This document shows, piece after piece, positions 9,762 through 11,399 of a stretch of DNA of 11,761 nucleotides. The translations under genes were made by a program, and so were the position numbers. The stretch comes from a virus (Duplodnaviria > Heunggongvirae > Uroviricota > Caudoviricetes). Below the pieces are notes generated by a model. That model saw only the letters and a list, made by a program, of their open reading frames with translations, searched no databases and was not told where the DNA came from. Position 1 is the first letter of the stretch. The number at the start of each line of letters is the position of its first letter. The stretch is taken from the IMG/VR virus record IMGVR_UViG_2526164633_000030; one strand, given 5' to 3'.

Positions 9762-9775
9762 ATTGACTGAAAACA

Positions 9776-9798
9776 AAGAGGTAATCATGCGGCATTTA
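9776..9798 (+). other. orphan translation start (RBS AAGAGG + ATG + 4 codons, MRHL) cut by the IS66 terminus
   Basis: AAGAGG at 9776-9781, 5-nt spacer, ATG at 9787-9789, then only 3 more codons before the GTAAGCG at 9799 that I take as the IS66 terminal inverted repeat. The identity of the interrupted gene cannot be determined from the window. Confidence 0.3.
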
Positions 9799-9828
9799 GT
9801 AAGCGGCTCGCCAGAACCGTATTGATAT

Positions 9829-11399
9829 TTACTGAGAGGTCAGATCAACTTTCCAGGGCAACAGATCGCGTACCCGGTTTGCCGGCCAATCCTGGATATG
9901 CTCAATGACGTAACGCAGCCATTTTTCTGGTTCCACATTGTTCAGACGGCATGTGCCGATCAGCGAGTACAACACCGCCGCATGTTCGCCACCGCTGTCG
10001 GAACCCGCGAACAGCCAGTTTTTCCGGCCTACGGCCACTCCCCGTAAGGCGTTCTCTGCGATGTTGTTGTCGATTTCCACCCAGCCATTACTGCAGTACA
10101 CGTTCAGGCCATCCCACTGTTTCAGCAGGTATGCGAACGCTTTTGCCGTATCCGAGTGACGCGACAGTGTTTTCATCTGAGTCTGTATCCAGTCATACAG
10201 TGACTGCATCAGTGGCGCAGCTCTGGCTTTTCTTGCCGCCAGACGCTGTTCTGCTGTACATCCCCGGACTTCTGCCTCTATGGCATACAGTTCACCGATA
10301 CGCTGCAGGGCTTCCGTGGTGATGTCGGTGGGCACTCTTGCATGCACATCGTGGATTTTTCTCCGGGCATGAGCCATACACGCGGCTTCCGTTATTCTGC
10401 CGGATTCGTATAACACCCGGTAACCACCGTAAGCATCGGCCTGAAGCACACCGCTGTAACCGGCCAGATGATTTTGTGGATGGATACCTTTCCGGTCCGG
10501 TGAGTACGCGAACCAGACCGCCGGGGGCATTTCCGAACCGGCGTTACGGTCATCACGGACGTAGACCCACAGCCGGGCGGCCGGGTTTTTACCGCTGCCC
10601 GGCTCCTGGACCGGACGGGGATATCATCAGCATGGACTTTACCGGGCATCAGCACATACTGGCGCAGGACGTCATACAGCGGCTCCAGCAGTTCAGCAAC
10701 GGCACCTGTCCAGCGCCCCAGCGTGGCGCGGCTCAGCTCCACGCCCTGGCGACGGTATATTTCTGACTGGCGGTATAACGGCAGATGGTCTGCATATTTC
10801 CCGGTAACAACATGGGCCAGAAGCCCCGCTCCGGCATAACTGCGTGCAATGGGTTTTGAAGGTACTGTTGCCTGCACGATATGGTCGCACCGACAACAGG
10901 CCAGTTTCGGACGTTGTGTTTCGATAACCTTAAAGGCGCTGCTGATAAGCTCCAGTTGCTCTGACACATCACACCCCAGAGGACTGAGGTCACCACCACA
11001 GGCCGGGCAGCATTCCTCTTCCGGCCGGATGACCCGGGTTTCACGGGGAAGTGAGGCCGGTAACGGTTTACGGGCTGAAGACTGGCGCAGGGCGGATGGC
11101 AGTACCGGGTCATATTGCTCACCCAGCGTTTCCGCCATTTCTTCCTGAAGTGCGCTGATTCGCTCCTGTGCTTCCTGTATCTGCCGTTCGGTTTTAGCGC
11201 GAAGTTTTTCTGAGCTTTTACCGAACTGCATGCGCTGCAGTTTCGCAACCAGCGCCTTCAGCCGGTTGATTTCGGAAGCATAAGCCGCCACCCGCTGTGA
11301 GAGCAGGCGGTTGTATTTCGCCATCTGGCGGATGGTGTCCTGTTGCGTCTGCAACAGTGCCCGCAGGCGGGCATTCTCATGAGCAAGTGAGGTGTCCAT
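9829..11399 (-). pseudogene. tnpC: IS66-family transposase (TnpC/Orf3-like), frameshifted near 10611-10614
   Basis: N-terminal part (MDTSLAHENARLRALLQTQQ...[18 protein letters not shown]) lies in one - frame and runs into non-protein-like sequence. The C-terminal part (...[43 protein letters not shown]...[16 protein letters not shown]) lies in the -1 frame. The two join cleanly if one G is restored in the run at 10611-10614. ATG at 11397-11399 with GAGG about 5 nt upstream. Confidence 0.8.

Follow-up and report, generated by a model that had tools for sequence, protein, structure and literature searches.

A lambda-like tail module that runs into IS679

The window analyzed here is the whole of draft contig AIHB01000019.1 of assembly GCA_000250235.2 (11,761 bp), which carries the tail region of a lambda-like Escherichia coli prophage; its 3′ end falls 1,963 bp inside an insertion sequence (IS) of the IS66 family, IS679. 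The contig stops within the element because IS679 is a repeat, and the frameshifted TnpC fragment encoded at 10392-11399 was found on exactly one contig of the assembly collection, AIHB01000019.1 itself. Pfam families on the called genes gave a lambda-type tail module in the order H (tape measure)-M-L-K-I-J, with lom and side-tail-fibre genes after J; the single addition to the lambda-type order was a sodC gene lying between I and J. The J product was identical to that of contig NMEO01000086.1 (L003), from the independent draft assembly GCA_002542395.1, in which the domains FNIII-A_GpJ, Phage-tail_3, Ig_J, Phage_Tail_Tip, and Ig_GpJ_C were identified; its relatives are named gpJ in RefSeq.

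Downstream of J lies a terminator-like hairpin (Table 1; one found by the consensus scan versus 0.3 expected) that was kept in IS-free relatives. An earlier note on this DNA, made from its letters alone, had placed after it a ribosome-binding site (AAGAGG, 9776-9781), an ATG at 9787, four codons (MRHL) running to 9798, and the IS terminus GTAAGCG at 9799, all of which are found at those positions. In the window, the frame opened at 9787 runs MRHLVSGSPEPY and ends at a TGA (9823-9825) within the IS, yielding an open reading frame (ORF) of 12 codons. The IS-free relative E2865 (L001) reads ATGCGGCATTTA|TACGCAACG... at the same place and continues into a gene of 207 amino acids annotated as Ail/Lom, downstream of which are tail-fibre genes and a gene for an EspF-repeat protein, whereas the window reads ATGCGGCATTTA|GTAAGCGG. 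A query of window positions 9600-9798 against 5,426 complete E. coli genomes gave 311 records with an identity of at least 99% whose match ended at 9798; among the matches listed, the annotations were “gpJ” and “Ail/Lom family outer membrane beta-barrel protein.” IS-free relatives were 100% identical over this stretch and then continued into the annotated 207-amino-acid Ail/Lom gene and tail-fibre genes; Shiga toxin (Stx) phage records were 100% identical over 9650-9798, and their match ended there as well. From the other side, IS679 copies in two unrelated contexts (L004 and L005) began with the same GTAAGCGGCTCG that is found at 9799. The end of the IS therefore lies at 9799 and the ATG at 9787 lies outside it, both as the earlier note had proposed, and the gene whose start is severed is lom, one of several candidates that it had named.

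This left junction is not an assembly artefact, because the independent draft contig L003 was 100% identical to window positions 2419-9875 (7,457 bp), junction included. Neither this junction nor the one at the far end of the element was present in any complete RefSeq E. coli genome or phage record searched, and exact-pattern scans for the true left junction in viral, genome, and metagenome contigs gave no match.

Identity and state of the element

IS679 was first described on plasmid pB171 of enteropathogenic E. coli (EPEC) (Han et al. 2001, J Bacteriol 183:4296, as cited in PMC6778807). Over its 1,963 bp, the IS part of the window showed 99.8% identity to numerous copies in the complete genomes that carry the annotation “IS66-like element IS679”; these RefSeq-labelled copies were the comparator. 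An intact copy that interrupts yiaA (L005) is 2,704 bp long, ends in ...GCGCTTAC, is flanked by the 8-bp repeat TGCCGTAC, and encodes a tnpA-tnpB-tnpC trio with a tnpC of 523 amino acids. The interrupting copy shares these traits: imperfect GTAAGCG termini (GTAAGCGGCTCG at 9799; ...GCGCTTAC at the other end on the far-side contigs L012 and L014, described below) and the same three-gene content; its full length would likewise be 2,704 bp. Its tnpC matched LZ_Tnp_IS66, zf-IS66, DDE_Tnp_IS66, and DDE_Tnp_IS66_C, TnpB_IS66 was matched by both the called tnpB fragment of the window and the intact copy, and its tnpA (HTH_Tnp_1) was found on L012. All three genes point toward J.

As assembled, the copy differs from other IS679 copies in its frameshifted tnpC and tnpB and in the length of its target duplication (9 bp and not 8 bp). 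Relative to the intact copy in yiaA, it had zero substitutions and four single-base insertions or deletions (indels): −T at 10580 and +T at 10586, which compensate each other, −G at about 10612, which splits tnpC, and +T at 11602, which shifts tnpB. Three of the four lie in short homopolymer runs, and all four were absent from every other copy in the 5,426 genomes (best match, 99.8%). The 7.4 kb of unique DNA in the window was identical to the independent assembly, with no differences. In a draft contig with a multi-copy repeat at its end, the four indels may be consensus or sequencing errors just as readily as real mutations.

The far junction and the interruption of lom

The far end of the element was reached by exact look-up of a 198-amino-acid Lom call with a TTG start at codon 10, which led to the contigs that encode it, including AIHB01000051.1 (L012; 62,964 bp), of the assembly to which the window belongs, and NMEO01000181.1 (L014), from the same assembly as L003. 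Both read ...GGTTTAAATGATGCGCTTAC|CGGCATTTA|TACGCAACGATATTATTG..., with the core ...GCGCTTAC|CGGCATTTA|TACGCAACG. L012 opens with the final 670 bp of IS679 (1 mismatch); the 9 bp that also precede the element in the window then recur, and lom resumes exactly at codon 5 (YATILLFTT...). The empty site, as seen in an IS-free relative, holds a single copy of CGGCATTTA. Farther along L012, the tail-fibre, small fibre-C, and SseK/NleB-family effector genes are intact (Table 1), now beyond 2.7 kb of antisense IS; the last of these is effector cargo typical of lambdoid prophages of EPEC and enterohemorrhagic E. coli (EHEC). Given the matching repeat, the exact continuation of lom, and the intact genes downstream, this is therefore a simple insertion by which nothing was replaced.

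We conclude that a single IS679 almost certainly transposed between codons 4 and 5 of lom in a lambda-like E. coli prophage. In such an event the 2,704-bp element would have duplicated 9 bp of its target (CGGCATTTA), leaving the J terminator, the lom ribosome-binding site, and the ATG with the first four codons on the J side (in the window), and lom codons 2-207, the side-tail-fibre gene, the small fibre-C gene, and the NleB-family effector gene on the far side (in AIHB01000051.1). Of the two options in the earlier note, that the IS had inserted into or replaced the first gene after J, insertion thus stands and replacement falls. The remainder of the gene was found where it had been expected, past the far IS end and outside the window, as the exact continuation of the ORF beginning MRHL, on AIHB01000051.1 as well as in the second assembly, and the comparison with IS-free relatives returned the uninterrupted gene. 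The direct repeat anticipated at the far end is present, at a length of 9 bp (9790-9798) and not the 8 bp foreseen; the 8-mer quoted for 9791-9798, GCATTTAG, was off by one base (it corresponds to 9792-9799, and 9791-9798 reads GGCATTTA). The findings that would have spoken against the earlier proposal, namely, an IS end elsewhere or a far end lacking duplication or ORF continuation, were not encountered.

Table 1. Features at the interrupted locus and at neighboring IS66-group insertion sites. Positions are those of the window unless a locus label is given.
Feature	Position	Strand	Basis or remark
Tail tip/host specificity gene J, 1,158 amino acids	6242..9718	+	ORF; Pfam on the identical L003 protein
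Intrinsic-terminator-like hairpin GGGCACCT-CAGG-AGGTGCCT with T run, after J	9737..9762 (hairpin 9737-9756)	+	Consensus scan
lom ribosome-binding site AAGAGG, 5 nucleotides before ATG	9776..9781	+	Sequence; same place before the annotated Ail/Lom gene in L001
First four lom codons ATG CGG CAT TTA (MRHL), severed from the remainder	9787..9798	+	Sequence versus L001
Left copy of the 9-bp target site duplication CGGCATTTA	9790..9798	.	Right copies at L012 671-679 and L014 78-86
IS679 (IS66 family), first 1,963 of 2,704 bp, entered from the tnpC-proximal end	9799..11761	-	Nucleotide identity
IS679 terminal inverted repeat GTAAGCGGCTCGCCAGAACCGTAT, imperfect	9799..9822	.	Two ends of the intact copy compared
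tnpC (DDE transposase), split into ORFs 10392-11399 and 9829-10530	9829..11399	-	ORFs; Pfam
tnpB (IS66 Orf2-like accessory gene), 5′ end cut by the contig end	11419..11761	-	Coordinates transferred from L005 3622-3969
Intact tail-fibre gene, 437 amino acids (phage_tail_N, collagen repeats, Phage_fiber_C), then small fibre-C gene	L012, after the lom remnant		
SseK/NleB-family type III effector gene, 326 amino acids	L012 3118-4098, some 1.8 kb past the lom remnant		
ISCro1 insertion after ATGC, duplication AATTATGC			O157:H16 Res13-Lact-PEA12-26 and ES5; junctions read
ISCro1 insertion after the ribosome-binding site, duplication GAGGTAAT			2013C-4187
Insertion 9 bp further upstream, right junction TTAC|GAAAAGCG			Strain 135 (L126); left side deleted, site inferred from the right junction only
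Nearby junctions	L002 5124-5131, L009 3533-3540, L008 3619-3626, L126 3721-3728 (= window 9769-9798)		

Points against the conclusion

Some observations weigh against this conclusion, the first being the length of the repeat. The range listed for the IS66 family in ISfinder is 8 to 9 bp. A target duplication of 8 bp has been given for IS66 (Machida 1984, as cited in PMC6778807), and a direct repeat of 8 bp is listed for IS66-family elements (PMC3281130). Of 34 complete copies of this IS66 group retrieved with both flanks, 24 had exactly 8 bp, 9 to 10 had no matching repeat, and none had 9 bp; all 24 of the other duplicated copies thus differ from the copy in lom. The 9-bp duplication is nevertheless real, because GCA_000250235.2 and GCA_002542395.1 agree on its extra C, and it is a curiosity only. 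A second point is that the two halves of the element lie on separate contigs: the window contig holds 1,963 bp, AIHB01000051.1 holds 670 bp, and 71 bp (element positions 1964-2034) are in neither, so that the joining of the two contigs by one IS copy is inferred from the matching repeat. Finally, with regard to loss of function, antiterminated read-through of the late operon together with weak initiation at TTG codon 10 may still give some Lom.

Fate of lom and alternative explanations

The product of the remnant on L012 matched Ail_Lom (PF06316; E = 1.6e-48; 165.5 bits versus a gathering cutoff of 23), the intact allele is named Ail/Lom family in RefSeq, and its N terminus, MRHLYATILLFTTLLAGIAFPAQA, resembles a signal peptide ending in AQA (by eye). 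In phage lambda, lom encodes an outer membrane protein expressed in lysogens and lies immediately after J. The gene studied here resembles lambda lom in lying between J, which it follows directly, and the side-tail-fibre genes, in its Ail_Lom match, and in its signal-peptide-like N terminus; it differs in being split by an IS and in its allele, which is not that of lambda but the one often found in lambdoid prophages of the Stx type and of EPEC/EHEC.

The remnant lacks both the ribosome-binding site and the ATG. At the far junction, the codons in the lom frame are TGA TGC GCT TAC CGG CAT TTA TAC..., in which the TGA stands inside the IS, five codons upstream of the duplicated CGG, and the IS-borne ATGATG is out of frame. 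The first possible start in the remnant is TTG codon 10, which has no Shine-Dalgarno sequence before it and whose product would be missing the charged N-region of the signal peptide. Judging by the lost ribosome-binding site and ATG, the upstream TGA, and the poor TTG start, lom is most likely inactivated.

An alternative is that the insertion re-wired lom, the IS end providing either an outward promoter or a start codon of its own, with Lom still being made. Had the duplication been of the 8-bp kind, the ATGATG at the IS end would have been set in the lom frame (MMRLRHLY...); moreover, IS66-group elements in three other genomes lie just upstream of or within the start of lom with its ORF intact, and all four junctions share one orientation. 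The in-frame fusion had to be rejected, as the real 9-bp junction leaves ATGATG outside the lom frame and brings a TGA into it; exact look-ups in the protein collection for MMRL-type fusion proteins of seven alleles found none, and a consensus scan of the IS-lom junction found no sigma-70-like promoter. With no Shine-Dalgarno sequence before the TTG either, re-wiring appears improbable.

Still less probable is that an IS-mediated deletion or rearrangement replaced the lom, tail-fibre, or cargo locus, such that the far IS end would abut unrelated DNA. Such outcomes do occur in the IS group, as 9 to 10 of 34 complete copies lack a matching duplication and strain 135 has lost an IS tip and the 3′ end of J by deletion, yet at the locus in question the far junction was read in two assemblies with the same 9 bp, the exact continuation of lom, and intact tail-fibre and nleB-like genes. 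That the junction is an artefact, a chimeric contig joining a prophage end to a repeat, is scarcely credible: the window is indeed a draft contig ending inside a multi-copy repeat, and its IS part has four private single-base indels, of which three fall within short homopolymer runs, but the independent assembly holds both the left junction (7,457 bp, 100% identical) and the right one, and a target duplication shared by the two is not expected from a chimera. Exact-pattern scans of viral, genome, and metagenome contigs for the far junction used the 8-bp form, which lacks the extra C; they gave no match and are hence uninformative on the true junction.

A second route to loss of the same gene was seen in sample SRR35260849 (L006 625-636), in which codon 9 of the same lom allele is changed from TTA to TAA, a separate inactivation by nonsense mutation.

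Other IS66-group insertions near the J-lom boundary

Insertions of a different IS66-group element, ISCro1 (annotated “IS66 family” in strain 135), were found in six complete genomes, in the same J-lom stretch and in the same orientation (Table 1). Strains 1504D004 and 1604D011 had the same match statistics as ES5 for the ISCro1 site and were assigned to it on those statistics. Together with the junction in the window, the three other sites make four distinct junctions within about 30 bp, produced by two ISs in different prophages, with the tnpA end facing lom. The ISCro1 insertions resemble that of IS679 in IS group, in orientation, and in location, 8 to 29 bp from the site in the window and within the same stretch between the J terminator and the start of lom. 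They differ in the element itself (about 85 to 90% identical at its end), in the lom allele (MRKLC...), in their 8-bp duplications, and in the intact lom ORF; they and the IS679 insertion are independent events.

That the IS66 group prefers as a target the interval of about 30 bp spanning the J terminator to lom codon 4, or that its insertions are selected there, is possible but must be considered doubtful; the cluster is suggestive, not established. The insertion in the window also departs from the others in its uncommon 9-bp stagger. It is in part a matter of ascertainment, as junction-based searches find only insertions near the query junction. Among viral contigs, 94 distinct flanks of the same IS group were very diverse, with a preference of at most 0.4 bit per position and none at the J-lom site, and the weak consensus of these flanks is not seen at the four J-lom sites. 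Targeting of terminators was considered and rejected: a hairpin was present within 80 bp in 4 of the 94 insertion flanks and in 6 of 501 control stretches, which is not a significant enrichment. Elsewhere in viral contigs, the same IS group was found in the body of lom (L065 4757-8059, at about codon 58, in the opposite orientation, with GCGTGTCC as its 8-bp repeat), and there were three cases in the C-terminal part of J (L080, L081, and L085).

Two of these genomes bear further marks of IS activity. Strain 135 (L126 1000-1060) lacks both the IS tip on the J side (GTAAG...) and the 3′ end of J, which looks like an IS-adjacent deletion. The prophage of 2013C-4187 (L008), with ISCro1 at the lom ribosome-binding site, also carries IS600 inside J (L008 1956-3112), so that its tail region has been struck by IS elements more than once.

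Significance

IS679 in lom of a lambdoid prophage is an ordinary and well-understood event. Small structural polymorphism driven by ISs is familiar from EHEC and EPEC prophages, an example being IS629 in O157. The present case is like it in that an IS interrupts a nonessential prophage gene in one lineage and is absent from close relatives; it differs in IS family, and nothing here points to a phenotype. The literature library searched held no paper linking IS66 with lom and none that mentions the AIHB accession. The insertion would be one more case in which a lineage of pathogenic-type E. coli has lost a prophage accessory gene to an IS, and it provides a marker junction, ...ATGCGGCATTTA|GTAAGCGG..., common to at least two assemblies. 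For annotation, the lesson is that the 12-codon ORF at 9787 and the 198-amino-acid “TTG-start Lom” are the two halves of one interrupted gene. Any wider reach would come only through a regional preference of the IS66 group for the J-lom spacer, if there is one.

Other features of the window

A GGGAAAG heptamer at window positions 17-23 is followed by an ORF (68-370) with a Phage_tail_T match; this is the expected site of the lambda G/GT programmed −1 frameshift, the count of the heptamer in the window being not above chance. Tail genes I and J are separated by 850 bp that hold, on the opposite strand, a Cu/Zn superoxide dismutase gene of 175 amino acids (5581-6108, minus strand; Sod_Cu, E = 3.9e-32), which is prophage cargo within the tail module.
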